Shown piece by piece: positions 6,404-26,466 of a stretch of 64,000 nucleotides of DNA. The notes beneath the pieces were generated by a model, which was not told where the DNA came from, did not search any database, and saw only the letters and a program-made list of their open reading frames with translations. The first letter of the stretch is position 1. Every line of letters starts with the position of its first letter. This stretch comes from a virus (lineage: Duplodnaviria; Heunggongvirae; Uroviricota; Caudoviricetes). Location: the IMG/VR virus record IMGVR_UViG_2737471844_000002, positions 10,565 through 74,564 of that record. The stretch is one strand, 5' to 3'. Position numbers and translations under genes: made by a program.

Positions 6404-6427
6404 GTGCTGAACTCCCCCAGCAGTACC
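6404..6427 (+). promoter_or_regulatory. conserved late-operon element, copy 1 (upstream of lysis genes)
   Basis: gtgctgaactcccccagcagtacc; shares the GTGCTGAACWCCCYC core with copies at 14500 and 26443; preceded by the dyad ccccgccacggtgggg. Confidence 0.45.
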
Positions 6428-6500
6428 TGCCACTCCATACCGCCTATCCTGTCCACTCAGTCTGTAAAACACGCAGGGATAACACTCACAGGAGAATTTC

Positions 6501-6893
6501 ATGTCTGAACCCATTTCAGGCAGCGGCGCGGTGGCACTGACCATTGGCGGTGCCGGTGTGTACGGCCTTATCACCAATACCGATTTCGGTGTGGTCGTGG
6601 GCGCATTTGCCGGGGCGCTGTTTGTGGTCACCCAGCAAAAAGAAATCCCGGTCTGGCGCATGATTATCCACCTGATTATCGCGTTTGTGGTCGGCGTTCT
6701 GGGGGCCGGTGTGGCGGCGTCACTGATGCAGTGGCTGACCCACTACAACGACAAACCCCTCGACGCGTTATGTGCGGTCGGTGTCTCGGCGCTCTCAATC
6801 AAGATTCTGACGTTTATTTATAAACAGGATATTTCATCGCTGTTTGGCCTGTTTTCACGGCTGCGCGGCGGAGGGGGTGAAAATGGTAAGTAG
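6501..6893 (+). CDS. holin-like membrane protein
   Basis: 130-aa ORF with several hydrophobic helices, immediately upstream of the endolysin. Confidence 0.4.
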   Translation: MSEPISGSGAVALTIGGAGVYGLITNTDFGVVVGAFAGALFVVTQQKEIPVWRMIIHLIIAFVVGVLGAGVAASLMQWLTHYNDKPLDALCAVGVSALSIKILTFIYKQDISSLFGLFSRLRGGGGENGK

Positions 6894-7179
6894 CGTTGCC
6901 GGCATTGTTAACGTCTGGCTGTGTGTCGCCATTGTGTTCGGGTTGTTCGTGTACCGCCGTAAAGGGGCTGTTCATAAACCTGCGGTCACCTGGGCGGCGT
7001 ACTGGCTGATGCTCTGGTACGCCATCATCCCGTTCCGCTGGTTGTTTGGTACGTACACCCACTCCAGCTGGCTGGTTGTGGCGCTTAATCTGGTGTTCTG
7101 TGCGCTCATCGTGTGGGCGCACGGGAATTTGTCGAAAATCCTTTCGTTACTGAGGCATCCACATGAAATCAAAAGATGA
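6883..7179 (+). CDS. membrane protein (holin/antiholin candidate)
   Basis: ATG 6883 preceded by ggagggggtga SD; about three predicted TM segments; overlaps the endolysin start. Confidence 0.35.
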   Translation: MVSSVAGIVNVWLCVAIVFGLFVYRRKGAVHKPAVTWAAYWLMLWYAIIPFRWLFGTYTHSSWLVVALNLVFCALIVWAHGNLSKILSLLRHPHEIKR

Positions 7180-7708
7180 CATTTTTGATGAAGTCCTGGG
7201 CAAAGAAGGCGGTTACGTCAATCACCCGGATGATAAGGGCGGCCCGACCAAATGGGGCATTACGGAAAAAGTCGCCCGCGCCCACGGATACCGTGGCGAT
7301 ATGCGTGAGTTAACCCGCGAACAGGCGCTGGATATCCTTGAAGCCGATTACTGGTATGGCCCGCGATTTGACCAGGTCGCCGCATTATCCCCTGATATTG
7401 CCGCAGAGCTGTGTGATACCGGTGTGAATATGGGGCCAACCGTGGCGTCCAGAATGCTTCAGCGCTGGCTGAACGTTTTCAACCTGCGCGGCAGGCTGTA
7501 CCCGGATATGGATACAGACGGACGCATCGGACCTCGCACCATCAGTGCATTGCGCGCCTTCCTGAATAATCGCGGTCAGGACGGTGAGCGGGTGATGCTG
7601 ACGGCCCTGAACTGCACGCAGGGTGACCGCTATCTGGAACTGGCAGAGAAACGCGAGGCTAACGAATCGTTTGTTTATGGCTGGCTGAAGGAGCGCGTGG
7701 CGGTATGA
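7163..7708 (+). CDS. endolysin, GH108-like muramidase with peptidoglycan-binding domain
   Basis: N-terminal FDEVLGKEGGYVNHPDDKGGPTKWGIT matches the GH108 signature (EGGY..P.D.GG.T..GIT); C-terminal half resembles a PG-binding domain. Confidence 0.7.
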   Translation: MKSKDDIFDEVLGKEGGYVNHPDDKGGPTKWGITEKVARAHGYRGDMRELTREQALDILEADYWYGPRFDQVAALSPDIAAELCDTGVNMGPTVASRMLQRWLNVFNLRGRLYPDMDTDGRIGPRTISALRAFLNNRGQDGERVMLTALNCTQGDRYLELAEKREANESFVYGWLKERVAV

Positions 7709-7887
7709 CGCGTCAGCACTGGACACACAGAACGCCACGTAAAGCCGCGCGCTGTGTTCTGGCCCTGTTTCTGGTGATGTTGCTTCCGGTGGGATGCACA
7801 GACATTAACAGGGCGGGCCAGCTGTTTGACGCGGCGGCGCAGGTCTGCCGGATTGTTGATGGCATCCGGCAGTGTTCGCAGAACTGA
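7705..7887 (+). CDS. putative lipoprotein (spanin candidate)
   Basis: 60-aa ORF with signal-like N-terminus and LLPVGC near-lipobox; position directly after the endolysin. Confidence 0.3.
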   Translation: MTRQHWTHRTPRKAARCVLALFLVMLLPVGCTDINRAGQLFDAAAQVCRIVDGIRQCSQN

Positions 7888-7908
7888 TTTTTTTGAAGGT
7901 CTGACACA

Positions 7909-8115
7909 GTGAGCATTATCAGATTTACAGAATGCGCAGGTTCAGGGAGCACCAGCGCTGTCATGGTAGTCGCTGAACGCATCACCCATTTTTACCGTCA
8001 GTGTGGTGCATATGGTGGCACGATCATTGAGCTGGATACCGGGAAAAACGTGTATGTTCTTGAAAATCCCGACAAAGTTAAATGCCTGATTGAACAGGCT
8101 CAGAAGGTCACTTAA
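7909..8115 (+). CDS. hypothetical protein
   Basis: 68-aa ORF. Confidence 0.3.
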   Translation: MSIIRFTECAGSGSTSAVMVVAERITHFYRQCGAYGGTIIELDTGKNVYVLENPDKVKCLIEQAQKVT

Positions 8116-8615
8116 TGGCGTGGTCACAGGATATCAGGGACAAAGTCCGTAACGGGTACATCTTTGACCAGCTTCCGCTGGATATCGTCGCCATGAAGTA
8201 CGCCGTGCCGCACGACACCGCGCGGCGCTGGAAAACGCAGGCGATGAAGAACGGCGATGACTGGGACAAGCTGCGGGCCGCGCACGCGCTCGCCGGTGAC
8301 GGGCTGGAAAGTGTCGCCCGCACCGTGCTTATCAGTCTGGTGGTGAAGTGTCAGACGACGCTTGAACGGCTGAACCAGAACCCGGACATCCCGCCGCAGG
8401 AGTCCGTCGAACTGCTGGCGAGTCTGTCTGACAGCCTCAGTAAGGCGGTGGCCAGCAGTAAAAAAATCCTGCCGGAAACCGACCGGCTCGCCACGGCACT
8501 GGAAGTGGTGCAGCGGCTCGGCGCGTTCATCAGGGACCGTCACCCGGCGCAGTATGCCCCGTTTCTTGAGGTGCTCGAAAGCTTCGCTAAAGAGCTTGAG
8601 GATAATTTCAGTTAA
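8115..8615 (+). CDS. Mu gp27-like small terminase subunit (DUF1804-like)
   Basis: 166-aa ORF just upstream of the large terminase; N-terminal region resembles Mu-like gp27 proteins (from memory). Confidence 0.5.
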   Translation: MAWSQDIRDKVRNGYIFDQLPLDIVAMKYAVPHDTARRWKTQAMKNGDDWDKLRAAHALAGDGLESVARTVLISLVVKCQTTLERLNQNPDIPPQESVELLASLSDSLSKAVASSKKILPETDRLATALEVVQRLGAFIRDRHPAQYAPFLEVLESFAKELEDNFS

Positions 8616-8661
8616 CCACAGCGGCCCGGTTTTCCGGGCCGTCTGATATTCGGGATTTGTA

Positions 8662-9402
8662 ATGCAAAAACAGATTATTGGTAACGCAACGTTGTATTGC
8701 GGTGATGTTCTTGATGTGCTGCCGGCGTTATCTGAACGTTTTGATGCCGTCATTACCGACCCGCCTTACAGCAGTGGTGGCACACACAAATCAGACCGCA
8801 GTATGGCCCCTTCGGACAAGTATGTCGGTCACACCCACTATGCCGAGTTCAGCGGGGATAACCGCGACCAGCGCAGCTGGGCATACTGGAGCACCCTGTG
8901 GATGTCCGGGGCTGCCCGCCTTGTGCGCCCCGGTGGTTATTTCATGGTGTTCAGTGACTGGCGACAGCTTCCCACCATGACCGACGTTTTTCAGGCCGGT
9001 GGTGTGCTGTGGCGTGGTCTGGTTGTCTGGGATAAAACGCAGGCTTCCCGTGCGCCACACACTGGCTATTTCCGGCATCAGGCCGAGTATGTGGTCTGGG
9101 GCAGCAACGGAAAACTCGACAAATGCCCGCACGGTGGCCCGTTCCCGGGTGTGATTACGCAGCGTGTTGTCCCGTCCGCAAAACTGCACATGACCGCAAA
9201 GCCGGTTCAGCTGATGGCCGAGCTGGTTAAACCGCTGGCACCGGATGCGCACGTTCTCGATCCGTTTATGGGAAGTGGCACCACCGCCATCCCTGTACTT
9301 GCCCGTGGCGGACGGTTTACCGGCATTGAAATGACTAACCAGTATTTTGATATCGCCTGCGCACGTATCGAAAAAGCGCAGGCAGAAGCAGCGCAGGTGT
9401 GA
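8662..9402 (+). CDS. DNA methyltransferase (amino-MTase, DPPY motif)
   Basis: 246-aa ORF with catalytic DPPYS motif preceding the AdoMet-binding DPFMGSGTT motif (beta-class order); sits between the small and large terminase genes. Confidence 0.75.
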   Translation: MQKQIIGNATLYCGDVLDVLPALSERFDAVITDPPYSSGGTHKSDRSMAPSDKYVGHTHYAEFSGDNRDQRSWAYWSTLWMSGAARLVRPGGYFMVFSDWRQLPTMTDVFQAGGVLWRGLVVWDKTQASRAPHTGYFRHQAEYVVWGSNGKLDKCPHGGPFPGVITQRVVPSAKLHMTAKPVQLMAELVKPLAPDAHVLDPFMGSGTTAIPVLARGGRFTGIEMTNQYFDIACARIEKAQAEAAQV

Positions 9403-9403
9403 C

Positions 9404-11044
9404 GTGGCAAAACGTAAACTTTCCATTAAAGAGTTTCAGAGAAGCCTGCAGGAGTACATCGCCAACCTCCGCCAGACCATCGAGGCTGAATGTCTGGGGT
9501 TCGATGTTAACCCGCAGGCCACACAGGCCCGCCGGGCGGCAGTCTGCGACCCGGTGACGGGCTACGATTATTTTGTCGAAAACTATTTTCCGCACTATGT
9601 CCGCAACCCGGCAAAAAGTGAGCTGCATAAATACCTGTTCAGCCGTCTGCCACAGGTTGTGGCAAGCCCGGACCCGGAGAACGACGCCATCGCCGCGCCC
9701 CGTGGTGAAGCAAAATCCACGCTGGTGACGCAGCTGTTTACCCTGTGGAACATTATCCGGGCCATTAAGCATTACCCGGTCATCATTATGGACAGTATCG
9801 ACCAGGCTTATCCGATGCTGGAAGCCATTAAGGCTGAACTGGAATTTAACCCCCGTTTAAAAAACGATTTCCCGGAAGTGTGCGGACAGGGCCGTGTCTG
9901 GCGTATGGGGACCATCGTCACGGCCAACAATATCAAGGTAACCGTTGCCGGTAGTGGTAAAAAACTGCGTGGTCTGCGCCACGGCCCGTACCGTCCTGAC
10001 CTGGTCATCCTCGACGACATCGAGAACGACGAGATGGTGCGTAACCCGGAGCAGCGCGACAAGCTGCATGACTGGCTCACCAGAACCGTGATGCCGCTGG
10101 GCGAGGCTGGCGGTAAAACCGATATTATTTATATCGGAACCATCCTGCATTACGACTCCGTGCTGTCGCGCACACTCAATAACCCGATGTGGAAAACGGC
10201 CCGCTTTAAGGCGGTCATTCAGTGGCCTGCCAACATGAAGCTGTGGGACGAGTGGGAAGAACTCATCCGCAACAAACAGCCAGAAGCGGCGGAGGCACTT
10301 TATCAGCAGAACGAAGCCGACATGCTCGCCGGGTCGGTGGTGTCATGGGCGGCGCGCCCACTGCTGGCGCTGATGAAAATCCGTGTCCGTGACGGTCACG
10401 ACACCTTTGATTCTGAATACCAGAACGACCCGGTCAGCGGTGAAGATGCGCTGTTTGCGGGCTGCATTAAGTTCTGGGTTAACCGTCTTGATGAATGGGT
10501 GTTTTATGGTGCTGTTGACCCCAGTCTCGGGAAGAAGAATAAAAACCGCGACCCGTCGGCCATTCTCGTGGGGGGCTTTAACCGTTTTACCGGCATTCTG
10601 GATGTGGTTGAAGCCGATATCCGCCGACGTCTGCCAAACAAACTTATCGAAGACGTGATTAAGTATCAGCGGGAATACCACTGTCTGTGCTGGTCGTTTG
10701 AGTCCGTCCAGTTTCAGGAGTTTCTGCGTACCGTGCTGGTTGAGCGTTCGGCGGCGCTGGGCGTGCCGGTTCCGGCGCTGCCGGTCATCCCGCTGGAGGA
10801 TAAGGCGCTGCGCATTGAGTCCCTTCAGCCGCATATGGCCAACGGCCTGATTCGTATCAGCCACACACATCAGACGCTGATTGACCAGCTGCGCCACTAC
10901 CCCAAAGCCGACCACGATGATGGCCCGGACTGTCTGCACATGCTGTGGACGCTGGCGGTATCGCGCAGCGCAAAATTTCAGATTCACACCCCACGCAGCA
11001 CCGGGCGTGACCGTGGCGGGCGTTTTGGTTCAGGAGGATGGTAA
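9404..11044 (+). CDS. terminase large subunit (Mu gp28-like)
   Basis: Large ORF; GTG 9404 chosen because it follows the MTase stop (the track ATG at 9347 overlaps the MTase); Mu-type terminase sequence character. Confidence 0.8.
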   Translation: MAKRKLSIKEFQRSLQEYIANLRQTIEAECLGFDVNPQATQARRAAVCDPVTGYDYFVENYFPHYVRNPAKSELHKYLFSRLPQVVASPDPENDAIAAPRGEAKSTLVTQLFTLWNIIRAIKHYPVIIMDSIDQAYPMLEAIKAELEFNPRLKNDFPEVCGQGRVWRMGTIVTANNIKVTVAGSGKKLRGLRHGPYRPDLVILDDIENDEMVRNPEQRDKLHDWLTRTVMPLGEAGGKTDIIYIGTILHYDSVLSRTLNNPMWKTARFKAVIQWPANMKLWDEWEELIRNKQPEAAEALYQQNEADMLAGSVVSWAARPLLALMKIRVRDGHDTFDSEYQNDPVSGEDALFAGCIKFWVNRLDEWVFYGAVDPSLGKKNKNRDPSAILVGGFNRFTGILDVVEADIRRRLPNKLIEDVIKYQREYHCLCWSFESVQFQEFLRTVLVERSAALGVPVPALPVIPLEDKALRIESLQPHMANGLIRISHTHQTLIDQLRHYPKADHDDGPDCLHMLWTLAVSRSAKFQIHTPRSTGRDRGGRFGSGGW

Positions 11045-11047
11045 TTA

Positions 11048-12643
11048 ATGGCACAGCTTGTTGATATTTACGGACGCCCGCTGAAACGTGAGGCACTCAA
11101 AACCACGCAGACGGTCAGAGTGGCGGAACGGCTGCGCATTTATCCAGACCACCCGTCGCGTGGTCTGAACATCAGAAAACTGCCGCGCATTCTGGAAGCC
11201 GCCGAGCGTGGTTATCTTCCTGCGCAGGCGATGCTGTTTGCGGATATGGAAGAGCGTGACGGGCACCTGTTCGCCGAGATGGAAAAGCGCAAAAAAGCGT
11301 TGCTGACGCTGGACTGGTCGGTGGAGCCGCCCCGCAATACCTCGAAGGCAGAAAAGGAGCTGGCCGCCGCCGTGGATGAATGGCTGCACGGCATCCCGGA
11401 CATGGAGGACATCATCCTCAACGGGATGACCAGTGTCGGTTACGGCTTCAGCTGTCAGGAAATCAGCTGGGCGTTCGTGGATAAAACGTGGTTACCGGAT
11501 GCGGTGACGCTGCGCCCGCATAACTGGTTCATTACCCTGCCGGAACACAATGACGAACTCCGGCTGGATGACGGCGGTCGCGGGGAAGACGGTAAGGACG
11601 GTTCCGCGCTGTGGCCGTTCGGCTGGCTGGTTCACCGTTACAACGCCCGGTCGGGATTTCTGGGTTCATCCGGTCTGTTCCGCGTACTGGTCTGGCCGTA
11701 TCTGTTCAAAAACTTTGCGCTGCGTGATATGGCGGAATTCCTGGAGATTTACGGCCTTCCGGCGCGTATTGCGTACTATGCACAGGGCACCAGTGACGAA
11801 GACCGGGACAACATTCTCGAAGCCCTGGTCAATCTGGGCCATGAAGCGGTGGCAGCCCTGCCGCAGGGTAACGAGATTGAGTTCAAGGAGGCCGCGTCCG
11901 GCGGACCGGAGGCGTTCATGTCGATGGTGGAATGGGCAGAGCGCACCACCTCAAAAGCAATTCTGGGCAGTACGCTGACCAGCCAGGCTGACGGTAAAAC
12001 CTCCACCAACGCGCTGGGTAATGTGCATAACGAGGTCCGGCACGACATTCTGGCCGCCGATGCGCGCCAGCTGTCCGGCATGTTCAGCAGCCTGATACAG
12101 ATGATGGCCAGCCTGAACGGCTGGCAGGATATCCCGCCACGCCGTCTGCCGCGTCTGGTGTTTGATGTGCAGCAGGAAGCCGACATTAAGGGCGTGGCGG
12201 AAGCCGTCAGTGTGCTGGTCAACAGTGTGGGGATGAAGGATATCCCGGCGTCGTGGGTGCGCAAAAAAACCGGTATCCCCACCCCGAAAGACGGCGAAGA
12301 GGTGCTGGTGCCGGTGGCACAGCGTCTCCCTGTGCAGGCGGGCCTCAGCCAGCTGCGTGAGCGGATGAATGTTGCCGCACTCAGTCAGCAGGACAACGGG
12401 GAGGACGACCTGGCACAGAACGCCATCGACCGGGCAGAGCTTCCGGCAGAGGCCATCGCGCAGGGGATGAACGAACTGGTGGCCCCACTGGTGCAGGCCA
12501 TACAGGAAGGCCGGGATGCAGACGAGGCCATGAACATACTGGCGGAAGCCTGGCCGGAACTGCCGGATGACACGCTGCGGCAGTTGCTGACGCAGGCATT
12601 CTTTGTGGCGGATATCTGGGGGCGACTGAATGCCGACAGCTGA
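11048..12643 (+). CDS. portal protein (Mu gp29-like, DUF935)
   Basis: 531-aa ORF immediately after the terminase; Mu-type portal sequence character. Confidence 0.8.
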   Translation: MAQLVDIYGRPLKREALKTTQTVRVAERLRIYPDHPSRGLNIRKLPRILEAAERGYLPAQAMLFADMEERDGHLFAEMEKRKKALLTLDWSVEPPRNTSKAEKELAAAVDEWLHGIPDMEDIILNGMTSVGYGFSCQEISWAFVDKTWLPDAVTLRPHNWFITLPEHNDELRLDDGGRGEDGKDGSALWPFGWLVHRYNARSGFLGSSGLFRVLVWPYLFKNFALRDMAEFLEIYGLPARIAYYAQGTSDEDRDNILEALVNLGHEAVAALPQGNEIEFKEAASGGPEAFMSMVEWAERTTSKAILGSTLTSQADGKTSTNALGNVHNEVRHDILAADARQLSGMFSSLIQMMASLNGWQDIPPRRLPRLVFDVQQEADIKGVAEAVSVLVNSVGMKDIPASWVRKKTGIPTPKDGEEVLVPVAQRLPVQAGLSQLRERMNVAALSQQDNGEDDLAQNAIDRAELPAEAIAQGMNELVAPLVQAIQEGRDADEAMNILAEAWPELPDDTLRQLLTQAFFVADIWGRLNADS

Positions 12644-13796
12644 CGATGTTGACCTGGGTTATGCGTATACCCTGAAACCGGAAGAAGCGATTACGTATTT
12701 CGAAAGCAAGGGATACGTTATCGGCTTCCGCTGGCACGATGTGAGGGACATCGCCAGTGCCCGGGCGTTCACGGTGGCAGGCGTGCTGAAACTGGATGTT
12801 CTGAAGGATATCCGTGATGGCCTGACGACGACACTGGCTGATGGCGGGACGTTCCGGGAGTTTGCAGCACAACTGGAACCACTGCTGGAATCAAAAGGCT
12901 GGCTGGGTAAAAAGCTGATTGTGGACGAGGACACCGGCGAACTGCACGGCAGACAGCTGACGCCGCGCCGGTTGCGCACGATATTTGATACCAACATTCA
13001 GTCCGCCTATAACGCCGGGCGTTATCAGCAACAGATGGCGAACGTGGCTGACCGGCCTTATTTTGAGCGCGTGGCGGTGATGGACCTTCACACCCGCCCG
13101 AAACACGCCGCCCTGAACGGTTTTACCGCCCGGGCGGATGACCCGGTCTGGGAGTATTTCTACGCGCCGGACGGATACGGATGCCGCTGCCGTATCCGGG
13201 CGCGTTCAGCGTCTGATGTGGAGAAATACGGCCTGACGGTGCAGAGCAGCGAGGGGCGGCTGGTTGAGGTTGAACAGGAATATGGTCAGCCGGGCCAGAC
13301 CATCAGAACGATGGGGCTGAAGATGCCGGACGGCTCCGTGTATACCGCCGACCCGGGCTTCGGATTTAATCCCGGTCGGGTGGCATGGCAGCCGGAACCG
13401 GAAAAATACGATTACCGCAGCGCCCGCCAGTATGTCACCGGCACTCTGACCGGGCCGGATTTTGCCCGGGGACTGGCGAACGTCAGCGAACTGGATGCGC
13501 GCCAGCGATATCCGCTGGCCATCCGTTCACCGGAACAGGTCGCCGCCACGGGCGCTGCACGGCAGACGGTAAACCTTACGGCTGATGTCATGAAGCGCCT
13601 CAGTGCAGCAGACACGCCCCCGACCGCCGCCGACTATGTGCTGATGCAGCAGACCATCGAACGGGCGGAGCATGTCACACAGGACGGCAACGCGTGGCGG
13701 TATGCGTTACAGTCGGGCGACCGCTGGTCGGTGGTGACGGTGGAGGATGACGCGCTGACAGACTGGGTTATGCAGGATACCCCGGAGGCATCATGA
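12630..13796 (+). CDS. head morphogenesis protein (Mu F-like)
   Basis: 388-aa ORF overlapping the portal stop; resembles the Mu F / minor head family. Confidence 0.7.
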   Translation: MPTADDVDLGYAYTLKPEEAITYFESKGYVIGFRWHDVRDIASARAFTVAGVLKLDVLKDIRDGLTTTLADGGTFREFAAQLEPLLESKGWLGKKLIVDEDTGELHGRQLTPRRLRTIFDTNIQSAYNAGRYQQQMANVADRPYFERVAVMDLHTRPKHAALNGFTARADDPVWEYFYAPDGYGCRCRIRARSASDVEKYGLTVQSSEGRLVEVEQEYGQPGQTIRTMGLKMPDGSVYTADPGFGFNPGRVAWQPEPEKYDYRSARQYVTGTLTGPDFARGLANVSELDARQRYPLAIRSPEQVAATGAARQTVNLTADVMKRLSAADTPPTAADYVLMQQTIERAEHVTQDGNAWRYALQSGDRWSVVTVEDDALTDWVMQDTPEAS

Positions 13797-14344
13797 GCAA
13801 CGGTAAACTGGATATTAAGATTGATTTAAGCGCGTATAACACCACGCTGGGGAAACTGATTCGTTCCGTGAAGGACCGGCGCGACCTGATGACTGCGCTT
13901 GCGGGTTCCATGCTGGATGCGGTTGAGACTAACCTGGAACAACAGGGTCGCCCGAAATGGATGGGCTGGAGTCCGGCTTATGCGAAGCGGCGCGGCCCCG
14001 GGCAAATCCTTCAGAAGTCCGGGCGACTGGCCGCCAGTATCCGCTCTGCGGTTAACAATAACGAGGCCACGGTCGGGACAAACGTCCGTTATGCCCGTAT
14101 CCACAACGAAGGCGGCGAAATCCGCCATCAGGCACGGACGCAGAACCTGTATTTTAAGCAGTATAAAAACGGCAGCGTCAGCACCCGCTTTGTGAAAAAG
14201 CGCAACAGTAATTTTGTACAGAGCGCAACGGTCGGAGCGTATACGGTCAACATGCCCGCGCGCCCCTTTCTTCAGCTTGTACAGGACGACATCGACGAGC
14301 TGGAGAACACCGCAAACCGCTATTTTGCGCGTGTGATTGACTGA
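13793..14344 (+). CDS. virion morphogenesis protein (Mu G-like)
   Basis: 183-aa ORF, ATGA overlap with upstream gene. Confidence 0.65.
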   Translation: MSNGKLDIKIDLSAYNTTLGKLIRSVKDRRDLMTALAGSMLDAVETNLEQQGRPKWMGWSPAYAKRRGPGQILQKSGRLAASIRSAVNNNEATVGTNVRYARIHNEGGEIRHQARTQNLYFKQYKNGSVSTRFVKKRNSNFVQSATVGAYTVNMPARPFLQLVQDDIDELENTANRYFARVID

Positions 14345-14499
14345 ATGGCCAGAAACGCGCTGTAATCGCCTTTGACGACATAAACGCCTCACGGATGAGG
14401 CATTACAGCACCGCACCCCATAAATGCCGTCAGAATCGTTTTTAAAAGGGTTTTAAAAACGGTTTTATTTCCCCTTTTATCCTTTCGCGTTATGGCAGG

Positions 14500-14523
14500 G
14501 TGCTGAACACCCTCCACAGTACC
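14500..14523 (+). promoter_or_regulatory. conserved late-operon element, copy 2 (upstream of head protease gene)
   Basis: gtgctgaacaccctccacagtacc in the 200-bp intergenic region after G. Confidence 0.45.
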
Positions 14524-16065: not shown

Positions 16066-16075
16066 GGAGCGAAAC

Positions 16076-16984: not shown

Positions 16985-16987
16985 TGC

Positions 16988-17329: not shown

Positions 17330-17332
17330 CCC

Positions 17333-17764: not shown

Positions 17765-17817
17765 TTACTGAAATTGAACGGGCGCTGGTTGAGCGTCTGC
17801 GTTGTGGTCTGGGGCAT

Positions 17818-18399
17818 ATGGTGCGGGAAGTCCGCACCTATGCCGGTGAACTGGATGAAGACCCGGGCCGGATTGTTCGCAGCCTTCCGGCAGCCTGGGT
17901 GACGTTCGGTGGTATCGTGAAAACCGAACGCTATTCCACGTCACGCCGGAAATACATTGCCACCGGACGCTTTGTGGTTGTGGTGGGTGATTACAACACC
18001 CGCAGCGAACAGAGCGCCAGACAGGGAGGCACCGTCCGGGATGAGGTCGGGACAAACCAGCTGGTTGAATCCGTCCGTCGCCTGCTGACCGGTCAGGATT
18101 TGGGACTGGAGATTGATTATTTCGAACCCGGGCGGGTCAGGACGCTGTTTAACACCGGCGTGGCAGAGCGGGCAATGTCCGTGTTTGCCTGTGAGTTCGA
18201 TACCCGCTGGGTGGAGCACGCGCTGGAGAACGGCAAATGGCCGGAGCGTGGCGCAGAAGCGGACCGCCTCTTCAACCGCTACTACGGCAGGCTGTCAGAC
18301 CCTGCCCCGGATTTACTGCGAATTGGTACGCAATACGGTGCAGATATCTGTGGTCTGGATGAATTAAGAGAGCAACAGCATGAACAAAATGAAGGTTAA
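17818..18399 (+). CDS. Mu gp37-like protein (DUF1834-like)
   Basis: 193-aa ORF; the reading frame is open upstream to 17740 with no canonical start, so the N-terminus is uncertain. Confidence 0.5.
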   Translation: MVREVRTYAGELDEDPGRIVRSLPAAWVTFGGIVKTERYSTSRRKYIATGRFVVVVGDYNTRSEQSARQGGTVRDEVGTNQLVESVRRLLTGQDLGLEIDYFEPGRVRTLFNTGVAERAMSVFACEFDTRWVEHALENGKWPERGAEADRLFNRYYGRLSDPAPDLLRIGTQYGADICGLDELREQQHEQNEG

Positions 18400-18622
18400 G
18401 GCGGCTCCCGGGGTGAAGTTCCCGATGGAGGATAACGCCCGGAAATACATCACCACGGAAGCGGTGACCGTTGAGAACACCGCTTATTACCGGCGCGCCG
18501 TTCAGGACGGTGACCTGATTCTGGTGAAAGATGAGCCTGAAATCACCGTGACGGCTGAACAGGACGCCGTGCAGGTAAAAGCGAAGGCGAAGAGAGAGAA
18601 ACAGGTGGATTCCGATGAGTGA
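18380..18622 (+). CDS. Mu gp38-like protein (DUF2635-like)
   Basis: 80-aa ORF immediately before the sheath gene. Confidence 0.45.
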   Translation: MNKMKVKAAPGVKFPMEDNARKYITTEAVTVENTAYYRRAVQDGDLILVKDEPEITVTAEQDAVQVKAKAKREKQVDSDE

Positions 18623-20036
18623 AATTCAGTTTGACACCATTTCGGGCGGTATCCGTAAGCCCGGTGTGCATTTTGAGTTTAATACCCGGCTGGCCGTTAA
18701 CACGCTGCCGGGTAATGAACAGCGTGTTCTGGTGATTGGCCCGATGCTGTCAGGCGGCACCGCCACGCCCCTGAATGCCGTTTCCGTGTATTCCGAAGAC
18801 GAAGCGGATTTGTATTTCGGGGCCGGTTCGCTGGCCGCTGCAATGGCGCGCGCGGCCATTAATGCCAACAGCTATCTGCAACTGGATGTTATCGGTATTG
18901 CAGACAGTGGCGCAGGAAAGGCAGCAACCGGCGCGGTTACCGTCAACGGTACGGCAATCAGCAGCGGAACACTGTCGGTATGGGTTGCCGGTGAGCAGGT
19001 TTCGGTGGATGTGGAAACCGGTGATGGACCGTCGAAAATCATTCCGGCACTGGTGGAAGCAATGACGCATACGCCCTCGCTTCTGGTGACGGGGGAATAC
19101 AAATCGGAAGCCTCTCAGCTGACGGTGACCACCCGGACCAAAGGAGCCTGGGGGAATGACATCACCCTGTCAGCATCCACCACGGCAGGTGGTCTGACCG
19201 TGAGCGCCACGCCGATGGCGAACGGTGAAATGGACCCGGATATTCAGCCCGCACTGGATGCGGTCTTTGCCGCCGGTCACAACATTCTGATTTGTCCGTT
19301 CAGTACCACGCCAGCCCTTGCCGCCCTGAAGCAGCATCTGGAGAAAACCGGGAACGCGATGGAACAGCGCGGCGCGATTGGCTGTGTGGGCTGGACGGGC
19401 AGTCTCGGAAACGGGATCACCCTGGCAGCAGGTGTGAACAGCGGGCGCGTGTCCGTCCCCTGGTATCGCGGCTCCGTGAAGCTGCCAGCGGTGCTGGCCG
19501 CCATCTACGGCGCTGTGATGGCGGGCGAGGAAGACCCGGCGCGTCCGCTGAACTCGCTGGCACTGTCCGGACTGGATGTGGTCGCCATGTCACAGCGTGA
19601 AAGCCGTAACGAGCAGGAAAACGCCCTGCATAACGGCCTGACGCCGGTTGAGGTTGGCCCGGGTAACACGGTGCAGATTGTGCGTGCGGTCAGTACATAC
19701 ACGGTTAACGCACAGGGCGTGACTGACGTCTCGTTACTGGATATCACGTCCATCAGAACGCTGGACTACACCCGCAAGGCGTGTCGCGAGCGCATCAGCC
19801 TTCGCTTCCCGCGCGAAAAACTCAGCACCCGCACTATCGCCAAAGTGGAAAGCGAACTGTATGACGTGCTGATCAAGCTGGAGGAAGCGGAGATTCTGGA
19901 GAACGTGGAAGCGAACAAGGCAAAGCTGCGCGTTCAGCGAAACGGGAAAGATGCAAACCGTCTCGACTGCGTGGTTCCGGCGGATGTGGTTAACGGCCTG
20001 CATGTGTTTGCCGGCCGCATCGACATGATTTTGTAA
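18615..20036 (+). CDS. tail sheath protein (Mu L-like)
   Basis: 473-aa ORF; contractile-tail sheath sequence character. Confidence 0.8.
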   Translation: MSEIQFDTISGGIRKPGVHFEFNTRLAVNTLPGNEQRVLVIGPMLSGGTATPLNAVSVYSEDEADLYFGAGSLAAAMARAAINANSYLQLDVIGIADSGAGKAATGAVTVNGTAISSGTLSVWVAGEQVSVDVETGDGPSKIIPALVEAMTHTPSLLVTGEYKSEASQLTVTTRTKGAWGNDITLSASTTAGGLTVSATPMANGEMDPDIQPALDAVFAAGHNILICPFSTTPALAALKQHLEKTGNAMEQRGAIGCVGWTGSLGNGITLAAGVNSGRVSVPWYRGSVKLPAVLAAIYGAVMAGEEDPARPLNSLALSGLDVVAMSQRESRNEQENALHNGLTPVEVGPGNTVQIVRAVSTYTVNAQGVTDVSLLDITSIRTLDYTRKACRERISLRFPREKLSTRTIAKVESELYDVLIKLEEAEILENVEANKAKLRVQRNGKDANRLDCVVPADVVNGLHVFAGRIDMIL

Positions 20037-20048
20037 GGAGCGCGGTAA

Positions 20049-20423
20049 ATGTCCATTAAAGAATATGTCGGCTCGATTGTGCTGGAGGTGGACAGCCAGG
20101 AAATCGAGATCACCGACTTTGATGTTCAGATCAACACCGGGCGAAAGCTGGTCAAGACCATGAACAAAACCGGCAGGGCCAAAGGCTTTGCCCGTGGCAT
20201 TGCCACTTACGATATTTCTGTTTCGGCGGTTATCCCTGATACCAACGAGCCGGACTGGGAAAATCTGGAAGGTGTGAAAATCTCAATTTATCCGCTCAGT
20301 AACAGCGGTAAGCGCACCTCCTATCTGGACTGCTTTACTGTTGAAGTGGGTGAGAAATACACCGTCGACAGTGAAGCGAAAATTGATATCAAAATGGCTG
20401 CACTCAGGAAGGTGACGGGATGA
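20049..20423 (+). CDS. tail tube protein (Mu M-like)
   Basis: 124-aa ORF after the sheath gene. Confidence 0.7.
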   Translation: MSIKEYVGSIVLEVDSQEIEITDFDVQINTGRKLVKTMNKTGRAKGFARGIATYDISVSAVIPDTNEPDWENLEGVKISIYPLSNSGKRTSYLDCFTVEVGEKYTVDSEAKIDIKMAALRKVTG

Positions 20424-20803
20424 CTTTGATTAATACACAGACCGGCGAGCTGTCTGATGGCGTGGTGTTTAACGGCACCGTTCATAAAAACTTTGAGCTG
20501 CGTCTGCCGGTCATGCGTGATAACGGGCAGGCACTGGAAGAAACTGAAGAACGCTTTCAGACGGTGGATGGCTTCGCGGCGGATTATTACTACCGCTGTG
20601 CGGTGATGGCGGCAACGCTGGTCCGTCTGGGGGATATTCCGCAGGAAGAACTGACGGCGGAGCTGTTACACGACAACATGACGCCGGACGATTTTAATAT
20701 TCTGCTGGCATCACGCAACGTCCTGAAGGTAAAGCGGAACGGCGGGAATCCCGGCTCGCCGGACTCCGGCTCGCAGTCCTCATCCTCGGGCGCTACGGAA
20801 TAA
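20420..20803 (+). CDS. tail assembly chaperone (Mu gp41-like)
   Basis: 127-aa ORF between tube and tape measure; acidic, Ser-rich C-terminus. Confidence 0.5.
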   Translation: MTLINTQTGELSDGVVFNGTVHKNFELRLPVMRDNGQALEETEERFQTVDGFAADYYYRCAVMAATLVRLGDIPQEELTAELLHDNMTPDDFNILLASRNVLKVKRNGGNPGSPDSGSQSSSSGATE

Positions 20804-20817
20804 CCGAAGAGCAAATC

Positions 20818-20976
20818 ATGACCATGAGCCGTCCCGAGTTGGACGGCTGGCTTGCCGCCGTTGACAGGCTGAACGGCGGCGGCTCAGGAAGGAAGGACAC
20901 CTCACAGACCACCCGCCAGTCATTTAAATCCCTCAGAAAGAAACGCAGAAAAGGTAAGCAGAAAAATGGCCGGTAA
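20818..20976 (+). CDS. small basic ORF before tape measure (possible chaperone frameshift extension)
   Basis: 52-aa ORF; its frame is open back to 20698, overlapping the 3-prime end of the chaperone gene in the -1 frame; no canonical slippery heptamer found. Confidence 0.25.
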   Translation: MTMSRPELDGWLAAVDRLNGGGSGRKDTSQTTRQSFKSLRKKRRKGKQKNGR

Positions 20977-23248
20977 TTTCAAAGTTGGCATGACCCTGAC
21001 TGCGAAGGACGAAGCCTCGCAGGTTCTGGAAAAGGGACAAAAACAGGTTATCAAAGCCACCGAAGGTGTAACAAAGGCAACCCGGAAGGCAGGCGCAGAG
21101 CAGAAGCGTACCGAGCAGGAAAGCATTAACAGCACGAAAAAGGCCGCAAAAGAGATACAGCGTGCCGCCCGTGCCCGGGAAACGCTCGGTATTCGTGCAG
21201 AGCGTGAGATCCGGCGTGAAATTTATCTGACGGTTGCCAGTTATAACCGTCTGGCCCGCGCCGGTTTTGAATCTGCGCAGGAGCAGGAGCGCGCCATGCA
21301 GGCCACCCGGGAAAAAGCCCGGGCACTCAAGCGCGAACTGGATGGCGTTACTCAGGCTCAGATGAAGATGGCGAAAACGCCTGTTATCCCTGAACAGGGA
21401 CGTTTTGCCCGTGCGGCTGCATTTGGCGGGAATGCCGTGACAATAGGCGGAGGTATCGCGGCAGGTGCTGCCATTATGGCGCAGCCAGTCAAAAAGCAGA
21501 TGAGCTACGAACGCCAGCTGGCAATGATGGCCAATACCGCCTTCAGTGATGGCGGTCTGGAGGGGCGCAGGGCTGGTCTTGAGCAGATGAAAAGCAGCAT
21601 CCGTAACGCAGTGACCTATGGTGGCGGCACGAAAGAGGATGCGGCCGAAACGCTGGATGCCCTGCTGAAAGATGGCGGTATTTCATTTGAAACAGCCAGT
21701 AAGTGGCTGCCTGAACTGATGAAATACGCCACGGCTTCTGGTGCATCAGCGACAGACCTGGCTAATGTGATGCTTAAGGGCAAAAAGACGTTTGGATTCA
21801 GGGATGAAGATATTTCCACCGTTCTGAATATGGCAATTGCAGCGGGCAAAGAAGGCAGCTTTGAGCTGAGCGACATGGCCCGATGGTTATCTTCGCAGCT
21901 GGGGTCAGCGTCAGCTGCGGGGATGAGAGGCAAGGATGATTTTGTCAAGATTCTGGCACTGAATGAAGCTGCCGCCATCACGGCGGGAAGCAGTGATGAG
22001 GCCGGAAATAACGTGTTTAACCTGCTGGCTAAACTGACCAGCCACGATATTGAAACAGCGGCAAAGAGCATTGATTACAACGGTAAAGGAATTGATTTTT
22101 CCGGCACGCTGGTTCAGGCGCGTGAACATGGACTTGATCCGATAGATGCGCTGTCCAGCCTGATAGACAAAATCGTTGCCAGCGATAAACGCTTTCAGGA
22201 GTTGCAAAAGAAACTGGCCTCCGCCCGGGATAAGGGCGAGCAGACAGCTGTTTATGATTCGATGGCAAAACTCCTTGAAGGCTTTGGTGTCGGGAAACTG
22301 GTTGCAGACCAACAGGCGTTAAAAGCGTTGCTGGCTTACCGTAACAACCCGGAATACCGGAAAAAGGTTGAAGACGCGATTAATCAGCAGCGCACCCTGC
22401 CGGAAGGCCAGCGCGCGGGTGATGTGGATTTTAACTTCATATCCGGCCTCAATGACTTTAAAACCGAACAAGCTAAAAACACGTTTGAATTTTCACAAAT
22501 GGACAGCGTGAAAAAGCTGGCTGATGCGTCCGGTACTGTGGCCGATGCCATAAGCTGGGCGGGTGAAAAATTTCCGGGGCTGACCACAGCAGTGGTGGGT
22601 GCCACGACCGCCATTGAAGCGATGACCGCAGCGGCTCTGACATGGGCCGGGATCAAAATCCTGACCGGGGGTAAACCTGGTGGCAAGGCTGGCGAGGTTG
22701 TCGGTGATGTCATTGAAAACACGGTCAAAAAAGGCAAAGGATTTAAAATCCCCGGCATTGCCGGTAGCCTGCTTTCTTTCGGTGGCACCGTTACGGCACT
22801 GGCCACCGCAACCAGCCCGGAAGAAGACGCCGCCGTCGAAGGAAGCGAGGAGCGCTGGAAAAATATACGGGCTAAATATCCTCAGTGGCTGATTGATGCT
22901 GCCCGTGAAAAATATCAGCCGTGGTGGCAGTTTGGCGAAGGTTACTCAACAGAAAACGAGAAATGGATCCAGCAGTATCTTGACGAACTGAAAAAAACCG
23001 GGGTTATCGCCGGTGATTCTCTGCCGACACCAGAACAAGTCCGACAGCAAGCCGGAATGGCAGCGTCTGAAACGGCATCAAAGCAACCCAGACGCATCAC
23101 CCAGCCGGAATACCTCACGCACTGGGGACCACCTGCCAGCCCCATTAATTTCACCACACAACTGGTGCTCGATGGTCAGGTCATAGCGGAGGCAGTGAAC
23201 AAATACAACCTTCAGGACGGCAACAGAGGCACGGGAGGAACTTACTGA
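20966..23248 (+). CDS. tail tape measure protein
   Basis: 760-aa Ala/Gly-rich ORF in tape-measure position. Confidence 0.75.
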   Translation: MAGNFKVGMTLTAKDEASQVLEKGQKQVIKATEGVTKATRKAGAEQKRTEQESINSTKKAAKEIQRAARARETLGIRAEREIRREIYLTVASYNRLARAGFESAQEQERAMQATREKARALKRELDGVTQAQMKMAKTPVIPEQGRFARAAAFGGNAVTIGGGIAAGAAIMAQPVKKQMSYERQLAMMANTAFSDGGLEGRRAGLEQMKSSIRNAVTYGGGTKEDAAETLDALLKDGGISFETASKWLPELMKYATASGASATDLANVMLKGKKTFGFRDEDISTVLNMAIAAGKEGSFELSDMARWLSSQLGSASAAGMRGKDDFVKILALNEAAAITAGSSDEAGNNVFNLLAKLTSHDIETAAKSIDYNGKGIDFSGTLVQAREHGLDPIDALSSLIDKIVASDKRFQELQKKLASARDKGEQTAVYDSMAKLLEGFGVGKLVADQQALKALLAYRNNPEYRKKVEDAINQQRTLPEGQRAGDVDFNFISGLNDFKTEQAKNTFEFSQMDSVKKLADASGTVADAISWAGEKFPGLTTAVVGATTAIEAMTAAALTWAGIKILTGGKPGGKAGEVVGDVIENTVKKGKGFKIPGIAGSLLSFGGTVTALATATSPEEDAAVEGSEERWKNIRAKYPQWLIDAAREKYQPWWQFGEGYSTENEKWIQQYLDELKKTGVIAGDSLPTPEQVRQQAGMAASETASKQPRRITQPEYLTHWGPPASPINFTTQLVLDGQVIAEAVNKYNLQDGNRGTGGTY

Positions 23249-24597
23249 TGGGCTGGGCTGAAAACCTGCAAAACGCCTCCTTTCGTGGCGTGCAGTTTGA
23301 TGTGCTGAACACGGATGAACAAATCAGCCGCGACCATGCGGTCTATGAATACCCGTTTGTTGACGGGGCGGATTTGCACGACCTCGGACGCAAGGCGCGA
23401 CCGTTCCGCATGACGGCGTTCCTGTGGGGAGAGTATTACGAATATAAACTTGAAAAGCTGATCGCCGCCCTGGACGAAGGCGGTGCTGGTGAGCTGATTC
23501 ACCCGGTTTATGGCTCCGTACCATCGGTGATTGTGACCGGCTACAGTATTCGCCATGACGCAGAAAGCCCGGACAGCTGCACCATCGACATGAGTTTTCT
23601 GGAGAACCGCACCGGCAGCGCGTTGTTCAGCACCCCGTTACCGGAGCTGTTTGCACAGCAGTTATTTGAAGAACTGGATAAGTTACTGGCACAGTTAAGC
23701 GAATTATTTGACGCTGTTACGGCCCCATTAAAGACCATTAACAGCGTGATTAAAAAAATCCAGACGGTACGCGCCACGCTGGTGAATACCCTGCTGACGT
23801 TCAAAAGCGATTTTCTCTCATCCATCGACAATATGATGTCGCTGGCCAGCGAACCAGGAAAGTTCATCGGCGGGCTGGCAGAGGTGCTGGAAATCCACAC
23901 GTCAGATGTCGGGCACGCGGTGCCGGTGCTGGAGCGTACTGATTCCGCCACCACGACCGGACTGACCGGGGAAGACAGCGTCGCCAGTTCTGCGACAGTG
24001 ATGACCTGCTGGAATGAGGTGATGGCAGATATGGATGAGCTGGTCGCGCTGCCGGTCGCACTGGTCAGCGGTGATAAAACGCCGTCTGTGGCACTTCCGC
24101 CGGATGCGTCCGTGGAAGACGTGCAGGACGTGAAAGCGGCTTATGCGGTTTTGGCAGCCTCAGAGCTGGCCAGCGTGGCGACGGCGATACTGTCAGATGA
24201 GGCCCAGTCAGAGCCGCTTATACCGGCGGATATCGGGCGACTGGTCGGGGATGTGCGCACCCGCTTACAAGCAGCCATCACGCTGTTCCGTGAACGCTAT
24301 GAAGGCGAACGCGAACGGATAACCGAAACCGCATCACCGCTGGGGCTGATGTACCCGGAAATCATTCAGAGCATGAAGAACGTGGCGGCATCCGTGCAGG
24401 ATGTCGGCCTGCTGGTTCTGTCTCGCCGCCCACCACTGACGCAGAAACAGGTGCAGGCGGACAGTTGCCTGCTGTTGCTGGCGTGGCAGTGGTACGGTGA
24501 TTACAGCCGTGCGGCAGAGCTGCAACGTCTGAACCCGCAGCTGCGTGACCCGAACAACATAACTGCCGGGATGGTGATTAATGCCTATGCAAAATAA
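23248..24597 (+). CDS. DNA circularization protein (Mu N-like)
   Basis: 449-aa ORF; resembles Mu gpN. Confidence 0.7.
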   Translation: MGWAENLQNASFRGVQFDVLNTDEQISRDHAVYEYPFVDGADLHDLGRKARPFRMTAFLWGEYYEYKLEKLIAALDEGGAGELIHPVYGSVPSVIVTGYSIRHDAESPDSCTIDMSFLENRTGSALFSTPLPELFAQQLFEELDKLLAQLSELFDAVTAPLKTINSVIKKIQTVRATLVNTLLTFKSDFLSSIDNMMSLASEPGKFIGGLAEVLEIHTSDVGHAVPVLERTDSATTTGLTGEDSVASSATVMTCWNEVMADMDELVALPVALVSGDKTPSVALPPDASVEDVQDVKAAYAVLAASELASVATAILSDEAQSEPLIPADIGRLVGDVRTRLQAAITLFRERYEGERERITETASPLGLMYPEIIQSMKNVAASVQDVGLLVLSRRPPLTQKQVQADSCLLLLAWQWYGDYSRAAELQRLNPQLRDPNNITAGMVINAYAK

Positions 24598-25792
24598 CGA
24601 TGACAAAATCAGCCTGGTCATTGCCGGAAGGTCGCATTCTGACTGGAGCAGTTATCGTATTGACAGCGATTTCCTGAAAGCCGCCGACGGCTGGCAGCTT
24701 CAGCTGGGACTGCCTGAAAAGGTGTTCCCGGCGGATATCGTCCGGGGTGCGCCGGTCCGTTTGCAGGTGGGAGACGAGACGGTCCTCAGTGGTCGCGTGG
24801 ACAGCGTGCGCCGCAGTGTATCCCGTCAGAGCTGCACGCTGACCCTGTCCGGGCGTGATGATGCCGCCATCCTGGTGGACTGTGCCGCACCGGTGTTCAG
24901 CGCCAATCAGCTGACGCTGGACGAGGTCATCGACAGGATTGTCAGACCGCTGGGGATACAGCGCATCCGTATTCAGGCGTCCGGTGTGTCACGTAATGAC
25001 AAGGTCGTTATAGAGCCGGGGATGCGTGCGTGGGATGCACTGGCTAAAGCTGCCGCCGGTCGCGGCTTATGGCCGTGGTTTGAGCCTGACGGTACGCTGG
25101 TTGTGGGTGGCCCTGACTACACCACCACGCCGGTGGATACACTGATTATGAAGCTGGACGGCACCGGGAACAACTTGATGGAGCTGGACGATACCCGGTC
25201 CATTAACGGCTGTTTCTCCGAGCTGACGGTGCTGGCCCAGAGCCACGCCCGCCGCGCAGACAGCAAGAAACAGGTGGCCGTGGTGCCGCTGGATATCTGG
25301 AACGAGGACGGCAGCGTGCGCACATTATCCGGGCAGGACAGCGGTAATACAGGCAGTGGTCAGACAGGCATTCATAACATGAAAGCCGTGGCCACCGACC
25401 CCACCGTGGATTATTACCGCCCGCAGATAATCACCCAGGGCGACACCAGTAACATGGAGCAGGTGAACTGGCGCGCAAAAAAAATGATGAGTGATGCCCG
25501 CCTGTCGGGGCTGGATATCGTCGCACTGGTTGCAGGCCATCGCACGGCGGATGGTGTCCTGTGGCAGCCCGGCCAGCGTGTGCGGATTGTCAGCGAACCC
25601 CACGGCATCGATGCCATTTTTTTTCTGATGGGCCGCGAGTTCAGCGGAGGCCGGAGCGGGCAGACAACCCGGCTCCGCTTTAAGGAGGATGGCGTGTGGA
25701 TACCTGATGCCTTCCCGCGCGAGAAGAAACGCCATCACCGCAGGGGCAAAAAGAAAAAAGAGGTCGCCATTGTTAAGGTCTGGGAGAAATGA
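24581..25792 (+). CDS. tail protein (Mu P-like)
   Basis: 403-aa ORF overlapping the N stop. Confidence 0.7.
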   Translation: MPMQNNDDKISLVIAGRSHSDWSSYRIDSDFLKAADGWQLQLGLPEKVFPADIVRGAPVRLQVGDETVLSGRVDSVRRSVSRQSCTLTLSGRDDAAILVDCAAPVFSANQLTLDEVIDRIVRPLGIQRIRIQASGVSRNDKVVIEPGMRAWDALAKAAAGRGLWPWFEPDGTLVVGGPDYTTTPVDTLIMKLDGTGNNLMELDDTRSINGCFSELTVLAQSHARRADSKKQVAVVPLDIWNEDGSVRTLSGQDSGNTGSGQTGIHNMKAVATDPTVDYYRPQIITQGDTSNMEQVNWRAKKMMSDARLSGLDIVALVAGHRTADGVLWQPGQRVRIVSEPHGIDAIFFLMGREFSGGRSGQTTRLRFKEDGVWIPDAFPREKKRHHRRGKKKKEVAIVKVWEK

Positions 25793-26442
25793 TGTGGGAC
25801 AAGGTTAATCAGCGCATACAGCAGGCACTGGCCGCCGTTCGCCAGGCATTCAGGGTGGTGACCGGTACGGTGGACAGTTCGACCAAAGTACAGCTACTTC
25901 AGCTGAACGGGCTGGCAGGCGAACAGCTGGACGGTGCGGAGTATTTTCAGCATTACGGCCTCACCACATCCCCGCCGCCCGGCTCGATGGGTATTGCCGT
26001 TCCGCTGAATGGTAATACCTCCCATACCGTCGTCGTGGCCACAGAGCACGGCGCATATCGCCTGACGGAACTGAAACCCGGCGAGGTGGCGCTGTATACC
26101 GACGAAGGCGCGAAAATCGTACTGAAGCGCGGGCGGGTTATTGAGCATGAATGTGATGTTTATCGCGTGAAATGCAAACGCTATGAGGTTGAGGCAGAGG
26201 AGAACGCCGCATTCACGACACCGTTACTGACAGTCAGCGATAAGCTGACTGTGGAAGGTAAAATCACCGGCAACGGTGGCATGGCCATCCGTGGAGGCAA
26301 GAAATACGCTGCCACCTTTGAAGGCAATATCAACCATGTGGGCGGTGTGATTACCTCCGTTGACGTCACCATTAATGGCGTTAAAATCGGAACACACAAA
26401 CACGATACCCCTCACGGCATATCCGGCCTGCCGCATAATTAA
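25789..26442 (+). CDS. baseplate hub/spike protein (Mu gp45-like, gpV family)
   Basis: 217-aa ORF with ATGA coupling to upstream gene. Confidence 0.6.
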   Translation: MMWDKVNQRIQQALAAVRQAFRVVTGTVDSSTKVQLLQLNGLAGEQLDGAEYFQHYGLTTSPPPGSMGIAVPLNGNTSHTVVVATEHGAYRLTELKPGEVALYTDEGAKIVLKRGRVIEHECDVYRVKCKRYEVEAEENAAFTTPLLTVSDKLTVEGKITGNGGMAIRGGKKYAATFEGNINHVGGVITSVDVTINGVKIGTHKHDTPHGISGLPHN

Positions 26443-26466
26443 GTGCTGAACACCCTCACCTGATTC
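26443..26466 (+). promoter_or_regulatory. conserved late-operon element, copy 3 (upstream of baseplate genes)
   Basis: gtgctgaacaccctcacctgattc starting immediately after the gp45-like stop. Confidence 0.4.

Follow-up and report, generated by a model that had tools for sequence, protein, structure and literature searches.

The principle of activator-dependent late promoters in bacteriophage Mu has been textbook knowledge since 1989. [quoted passage not shown] In Pm the 16-bp element at -43.5 consists of two 5-bp inverted repeats and a G/C-rich 6-bp spacer (PMC4390567). Cryo-electron microscopy of the Mor and C complexes placed the activator in contact with the alpha subunit's C-terminal domain in RNA polymerase (alphaCTD), region 4 of sigma70 and the beta flap (bioRxiv 10.1101/2025.05.02.651988). 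Here we analyzed a 64-kb window, i.e., the whole stretch of 64,000 nucleotides covering positions 10,565 to 74,564 of the IMG/VR virus record IMGVR_UViG_2737471844_000002, in which a Mu-like prophage carries three copies of a 15-bp element, GTGCTGAACWCCCYC. Judging from the sequence and from the analogy with Mu, the three copies very probably represent the upstream halves of late promoters that work by the Mor/C mechanism with the phage's own Mor/C-family protein. The late operons of phages P2 and P4, in which a partial dyad centered near -55 lies upstream of a weak sigma70 promoter and is served by a small zinc-finger activator of the phage, Ogr or Delta, are a functional analogy only, since both the protein family and the geometry differ from those of the window phage.

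The locus resembles Mu in having several late operons, each with a -10 but no -35 element and with a 16-bp imperfect dyad at -43.5 (here predicted), in the gene for a small activator of the Mor/C family just ahead of the lysis operon, and in the genome positions of its first two promoters, before the lysis genes and in the gap between genes G and I. It differs from Mu in the recognition word, which is unrelated (TTAT..ATAA-type boxes in Mu against GCTGAAC..CAGC here), and in the place of the third promoter, which precedes gp46, two genes past P, while PP of Mu lies at P; moreover, gp46 of Mu overlaps gp45 and leaves no gap, in contrast to the gap of 53 bp present here. Finally, PI and Plys of Mu have leaders, whereas promoters 2 and 3 of the window phage appear leaderless.

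Repeated element and proposed promoter layout

The first-pass annotation of the window had reported a near-identical element at three places on the coding strand, and exact matches to GTGCTGAACWCCCYC were indeed present at all three, each of them intergenic:

6404-6418, + strand: copy 1, GTGCTGAACTCCCCC
14500-14514, + strand: copy 2, GTGCTGAACACCCTC
26443-26457, + strand: copy 3, GTGCTGAACACCCTC

When up to two mismatches were allowed, five matches were seen against 0.33 expected from dinucleotide shuffles, and none of 100 shuffles produced five. The 24-nt spans originally named were identical in 20/24 bases between copies 1 and 2 and in 18/24 between copies 2 and 3. The CAGTACC said to be common to the first two copies was found at 6421-6427 and 14517-14523; it is kept neither in copy 3 nor in the divergent relatives described below and is lineage-specific, the functional unit being GCTGAAC...CAGC together with the -10 hexamer. 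A fourth candidate site at 7971 (CGCTGAACGCATCACCCA) was rejected: it is located within a coding region, lacks the C-rich spacer and falls outside the 15 best matches to the matrix described below, all of which scored at least 3.9 bits.

The gene context proposed for the three copies agreed with the Pfam matches. Copy 1 is followed by two holins and then a GH108 endolysin; after copy 2 come a protease of the Mu gpI type and gpT, the major head protein. The 53-bp gap between gp45 (spike) and gp46 holds copy 3, which is thus inside the baseplate module and two genes downstream of gene P; Baseplate_J, gp48 and tail-fiber genes come next. The sites would accordingly head three late units:

~6457-14344, + strand: late unit 1, with lysis, terminase, portal and gpG genes
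14554-26442, + strand: late unit 2, with protease, head and tail genes and gp45
from 26496, + strand: late unit 3, with gp46, baseplate and tail-fiber genes

For the description of the sites, element positions were numbered such that the T of TGCTGAAC is position 1. Each site contains a 16-bp element and a -10-like hexamer (bits are scores against the matrix of relatives, see below):

6406-6421, + strand: 16-bp element of site 1 (Plys-like), GCTGAACTCCCCCAGC, holding the inverted repeat TGCTG-N8-CAGCA; 20.9 bits
6445-6450, + strand: -10-like hexamer of site 1, TATCCT
14502-14517, + strand: 16-bp element of site 2 (PI-like), GCTGAACACCCTCCAC; 19.8 bits
14541-14546, + strand: -10-like hexamer of site 2, CATCAT
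26445-26460, + strand: 16-bp element of site 3 (gp46 promoter), GCTGAACACCCTCACC; 26.3 bits
26484-26489, + strand: -10-like hexamer of site 3, CAGACT, with TGc ahead of it (extended -10-like)

The hexamer occupied positions 41-46 at all three sites, with the key bases A2 and T6 present. A consensus scan that needed both a -35 and a -10 hexamer detected no two-hexamer sigma70 promoter at any of the three sites, where the -35 positions read AGTACC (sites 1 and 2) and TGATTC (site 3). The conserved block at positions 2-17 forms a 16-bp imperfect dyad, GCTGAAC-N-CCC-N-CAGC, with a nearly invariant left half, and its center was 31.5 bp away from the first base of the hexamer at all sites. With the hexamer taken as -12 to -7, the dyad center falls at -43.5, the comparison of this figure with Mu being based on the published statements. 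The layout thus matches that of the Mor/C promoters of Mu point for point, from which it was concluded that the three sites probably work in the same way: a single Mor/C-family protein, encoded at 5610-6077, would bind the dyad centered near -43.5, stand in for the -35 contact and recruit the sigma70 RNA polymerase. That the product of 5610-6077 does the binding, that the promoters require it and where exactly their transcripts start is inferred.

An A/T-rich stretch for the alphaCTD has been described just upstream of the activator site in Pm. The upstream flanks here contained an A/T-rich tract at site 2, CATAATTAA at site 3 and a GC hairpin at site 1, and the mean A+T fraction in the 23 nt upstream of the relatives' elements was 0.50. 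The G-I intergenic region just upstream of site 2 (14425-14470) includes the A/T-rich sequence CGTTTTTAAAAGGGTTTTAAAAACGGTTTTAT. Relatives from Trabulsiella, Serratia, Xenorhabdus and Morganella keep this sequence, and in the alignment with Mu (L116, 17900-17960) it falls next to the annotated strong gyrase site, on the right of it. It may represent either the gyrase-site equivalent or an UP-like element for the gene I promoter.

Relatives, activator gene and alternative readings

The prophage has many close relatives: a match was found in 148 E. coli genomes (out of 5,426 complete ones), that of enteropathogenic E. coli E2348/69 among them (94.5% identity), and in 18 IMG/VR contigs. This group keeps the sites, but the short distance makes their conservation little informative. 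Megablast of the region against 50,697 phage records gave no match, which means that the characterized phages are too distant for a DNA comparison, and the protein-level matches to them did not exceed 41%. A single-protein scan of species-representative genomes found no relative, and the divergent relatives were found by a scan with an alignment of activator homologs. They belonged to Trabulsiella, Xenorhabdus, Photorhabdus, Intestinirhabdus, Buttiauxella, Morganella, Lonepinella and Serratia, with activators 37-55% identical. Each of them had the element after the activator gene and again some 8 kb downstream, directly before gene I, with the hexamer at 41-46, the Lonepinella and Serratia sites included. 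Several contained the perfect form GCTGA-ACCCCC-TCAGC, which, with its two 5-bp inverted repeats and C-rich 6-bp spacer (16 bp in total), has exactly the dyad layout of Pm. The third promoter (80 viral contigs, collected via gp46) and the second (79, via gene I) recurred in many further lineages. The information content was near maximal at positions 2-15, moderate up to 20 and about zero at positions 21-40 and in the upstream flank; at the hexamer's A and T it returned to a high level. Together with its spacing, the element forms a phylogenetic footprint shared by these genera, the flanks being randomized.

The footprint was converted into a two-block matrix built from 31 sites of the relatives, with the window sequence and its close relatives left out; the hexamer was at 41-46 in 26 of these sites and 1 nt closer in the other five, all of them gp46 promoters. 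A motif search across the Mu-like region and related prophages had been suggested beforehand as a check, and the relatives-only matrix ranked the same three sites first in the 64-kb window (26.3, 20.9 and 19.8 bits, followed by the next match at 10.4). Only 3 of 300 shuffled windows reached 19.8 bits even once; this run was used instead of a 20-shuffle control, which gave a few very high maxima. The matrix found no fourth site in the 64 kb and, thus, no mom-type fourth promoter, in which the window phage again differs from Mu.

A further property of the element was its behavior within single genomes. Non-orthologous promoters of one genome were 91% identical over the 20-bp element, compared to 75% between genomes, while the flanks were 30-35% identical both within and between genomes. 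The variants were shared accordingly: the Serratia phages had TGACGAACCCCATCATC (GACGAAC variant) at both the lys and I promoters, the Lonepinella phage had TGCTGAATGsGGTCATC (GCTGAAT variant) at the same two promoters, and one metagenomic phage had GCTGAAG at both the I and gp46 promoters. The pattern is one of concerted evolution within each genome, as predicted for a recognition protein encoded by the phage; such variants, specific to one genome and common to its late promoters, speak against a reader supplied by the host.

The presumed reader of the three sites and its surroundings are as follows:

5521-5539, then T7, + strand: intrinsic terminator, recognized by sequence
5553-5580, + strand: putative sigma70-like promoter TGTACA-16-TATAAT (10/12 in the consensus scan), just upstream of the activator gene
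5610-6077, + strand: gene of the Mor/C-family late activator, 155 amino acids

The product matched the Pfam family PF08765 Mor (29 bits against a cutoff of 24.9) and PHROG 836, 'late transcriptional activator' (E = 1e-42). The profile of its subfamily matched the Mu C structures 9l0x and 9vw8 at E ~1e-3 and the Mor structure 1rr7 at E = 0.7, and BLASTP against Mu Mor and Mu C gave E ~1e-4. In Mu, Pm drives the second activator, C, in a three-step cascade. The window phage, in contrast, encodes only one member of the family, and a terminator and a sigma70-like promoter of its own precede the gene. The first-pass annotation had regarded the elements as late promoters with sites for this Mor/C-family protein, and its view is supported by the family match, the -10 without a -35, the dyad geometry, the footprint and the concerted evolution.

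The number of Mor-family members varied among the relatives. Those from Trabulsiella, Intestinirhabdus and Buttiauxella had one, like the window phage, while those from Xenorhabdus, Photorhabdus and Morganella had two paralogs separated by about 600 bp, which resemble the Mor-C pair of Mu (8943-9353 and 10001-10444 in L023; likewise L024, L028 and L029). The window activator is closer to the second, lysis-proximal paralog, and the interval between the two contains TACTGAACACCTTC, which is part of a terminator hairpin and immediately precedes the second gene. An element of the TGCTGAAC type was found upstream of the activator gene itself in Tenebrionibacter and Edwardsiella (L025, 9937-10016; L020 and L021, 168-275), in L025 with a TACCGT hexamer at the usual distance. 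This points to positive autoregulation or to a changed order of the genes; in L025, Mu-type G and I genes are absent within 10 kb.

Several observations weigh against assigning the sites to this activator and mechanism. The activator shares only 19-28% of its residues with Mor and C of Mu (28% in the case of C) and carries insertions, and its helix-turn-helix region is too conserved across the lineages to reveal covariation between residues and the bases of the site variants. The relatives with two Mor paralogs have two candidate readers of the site. Concerning the sites themselves, the right half-site is degenerate at sites 2 and 3 (CCAC and CACC for CAGC), the hexamers are weak (3-4/6 consensus matches), and the figure of -43.5 presupposes a hexamer at -12 to -7, the starts being predicted. 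Furthermore, the E. coli lineage has a second symmetry, GGGTG-CTGAA-CACCC, centered 4.5 bp further upstream (-48), which is an alternative to the axis at -43.5.

The missing covariation would also fit late promoters whose element is read by another factor, either a different phage product, e.g., that of 5007-5510 (phrog_19473) or of 6103-6381 (phrog_7152), two uncharacterized genes flanking the activator gene, or a host protein. This we consider unlikely, because the site geometry is exactly that of Mor and C, all relatives examined have a Mor homolog a short way upstream of their first site, and the neighboring small open reading frames (ORFs) are not kept in place, Trabulsiella having a different inserted gene; the host version is, in addition, at odds with the finding that all late promoters of a phage have the variant specific to its genome. 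Still less probable is a role of the repeats in RNA or as module boundaries (processing or stability sites, terminator-like insulators where operons end, recombination hot spots marking modules open to exchange): sites 1 and 3 do adjoin or overlap strong GC-rich hairpins and all three are found at gene-module junctions, but no common fold includes the motif at all three sites (z = -1.4 at site 2), no Rfam family matches, and a linear DNA word with a hexamer at a fixed distance and 20 free nt in between is the signature of a promoter, not of an RNA structure.

The GAAC of the element resembles the -35 core of promoters of the extracytoplasmic function (ECF) sigma factors, so that it might be the -35 part of an alternative promoter of this type. 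This reading was rejected as very improbable: there is no conservation at the ECF spacing, 16-17 nt downstream of GAAC (information content about zero at positions 21-40), and the downstream element that is conserved, the A2/T6 hexamer, comes 32 nt after GAAC; the prophage annotation showed no gene for a sigma factor, and the site variants follow the phage and not the host. Finally, short repeats do arise by chance in 64 kb, but a chance repeat or a functionless leftover of duplication has hardly any probability left in view of the 0.33 matches expected from shuffles, of a window-free matrix that finds exactly these three sites, and of an element kept in genera whose flanks are at random-level identity. 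Late promoters served by the Mor/C-family protein thus remain the preferred explanation.

On this explanation the window provides a regulatory map, consisting of one activator, three late promoters, the recognition word GCTGAAC..CAGC and the predicted start sites, for a common and uncharacterized family of Mu-like prophages of E. coli and several other enterobacterial genera. Such a map permits annotation of the late operons and design of prophage induction reporters. The variants GCTGAAC, GCTGAAG, GCTGAAT and GACGAAC, each with its own activator sequence, would be a natural set for the study of DNA reading by Mor/C proteins, and the structures of the Mor and C complexes with RNA polymerase are now available for interpretation of this series.

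Predicted start sites and hairpins

At site 1 the predicted start (~6457) would leave a leader of 44 nt with the Shine-Dalgarno sequence AGGAGA before the holin ATG at 6501. The other two sites had no Shine-Dalgarno sequence: the hexamer is followed by 7 nt and the ATG of gene I (14554) at site 2, and by 6 nt and the ATG of gp46 (26496) at site 3. The RefSeq start of the orthologous protease is the ATG equivalent to 14554. The same arrangement was found in the relatives, where gene I was preceded by the hexamer, 6-7 nt and ATGAAA, also without a Shine-Dalgarno sequence, and gp46 in most lineages by the hexamer, 6 nt and ATGGAC (80 viral contigs); at both genes the hexamer + 6-7 nt + ATG was kept in most lineages, whatever the upstream dyad looked like. 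It is this conserved spacing only which suggests that the transcripts from promoters 2 and 3 begin with the A of the start codon or right beside it and so appear to be leaderless. A precedent is the cI transcript of phage lambda from PRM, which is leaderless, starts at the A of the AUG and needs no Shine-Dalgarno sequence; here, the leaderless starts are predicted at activator-dependent promoters of structural genes, with, in the case of gp46, an additional hairpin that would mask the AUG in read-through RNA. This hairpin is located as follows:

26475-26499, + strand: hairpin CCAUGCUGCC-AGACU-GGCGGCAUGG, whose loop contains the -10 and whose 3' arm contains the gp46 AUG

Its calculated energy was -24.9 kcal/mol (z = -5.8), and none of 200 shuffles was as stable. 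In an alignment of 27 gp46 upstream regions, which were picked from 50 distinct ones for a visible left arm, 94.4% of the cells were paired, compared to 26-39% with slid partners, with 22 G.U cells against 15 other non-pairs. Four pairs were changed on both sides, and the observed level of covariation was reached by none of 500 shuffles. More distant lineages had other palindromes around the gp46 hexamer, and no Rfam family matched the hairpin. At gene I an AUG-including hairpin was detected in 6 of 58 sequences by an automated search with crudely assigned start codons, so no general claim is made for that gene.

Since only read-through RNA has both arms, the gp46 AUG would be masked unless transcription starts at its own promoter, and the promoter-initiated gp46 transcripts, being without the 5' arm, would alone be translatable. 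We put forward only tentatively, and as rather doubtful, that in the window phage and in a broad set of Mu-like phages apart from Mu the head (I) and baseplate (gp46) operons are expressed as leaderless mRNAs from activator-dependent promoters and that the hairpin masks the gp46 AUG in read-through RNA. If true, translation of the baseplate/tail-fiber operon would be coupled to activator-dependent initiation, and the leaderless starts together with the AUG-masking hairpin would add a translational layer to the classical transcriptional cascade. The searched literature contained no description of such gating for Mu-type late promoters, nor of this motif or of leaderless mRNAs from late genes of Mu-like phages. 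New here could be the leaderless starts and the masking hairpin, the promoter principle being already known from Mu.

The 3' end of gp45 contains a sigma70-like sequence, TTGACG-16-TAAAAT (10/12), at 26360-26387 (+), which is 56 bp upstream of site 3. Its conservation is confined to relatives with the same gp45 coding sequence, and the number of such matches is below the shuffle expectation, so it was dismissed as a probable chance match; if active, it would make read-through RNA holding the gp46 hairpin.

The dyad previously noticed before copy 1 proved to be a GC-rich hairpin:

6387-6406, + strand: CACCCCGC-CACG-GTGGGGTG, 8-bp stem, after the stop of the small ORF 6103-6381 and without a T-run

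The 3' arm of this hairpin overlaps the first three bases of the motif, and the fold of 6378-6425 had an energy of -17.7 kcal/mol (z = -2.3). The equivalent in E2348/69 is CACCCCGC-CGCC-GCGGGGTG, in which a G.U pair is changed to G-C. In some relatives of the E. coli lineage (L006, 10214-10242; L015 and L016) site 1 is included in a perfect palindrome with 12-bp arms, CTGCTGGGGGTG-CTGAA-CACCCCCAGCAG (-25.7 kcal/mol, z = -5.0), which takes the place of the separate upstream hairpin of the window and could be an end mark of the activator transcript, a cruciform or a second binding register.

Prophage surroundings and other features of the window

The Mu-like prophage ends at 32172 (...GAAGTTACACA). 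The following part of the window, 32173-52202, shares 98% identity with a P2-like prophage found in E. coli VG35A2, beginning 253 bp inside the gene of the replication endonuclease (gpA). The location of the junction 32172/32173 inside gpA indicates that the Mu-like phage transposed into a resident P2-like prophage and disrupted its replication gene. Toward this end, an intrinsic terminator at 30013-30030 (AGCCGCCAGCAGGCGGCT, then TTTTT) follows the tail-fiber assembly gene, and a second tail-fiber-type gene pair (Prophage tail fibre N-terminal; DUF4376) at 30051-32049 has no TGCTGAAC-type promoter.

The P2-like prophage contains, at 36458-39741, a gene pair for an AAA ATPase (weak STAND/NACHT-like matches, C-terminal helix-turn-helix) and an S8 subtilase, placed between the partition genes and the portal gene, which is a typical place of defense cargo. 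The only Rfam match of the window at the gathering score was IS009 (RF02111, 187 bits) at 53931-54129 (+), beyond 32173-52202, where the retrieved P2-like locus ends. Within the Mu-like part, downstream of the major head gene, the small ORF 16988-17329 includes three tandem 42-bp (14-codon) repeats, GAACTGxCxGCxCAxCTG..., at 17183-17308, which look coiled-coil-like, as in a head decoration or scaffold-like protein.

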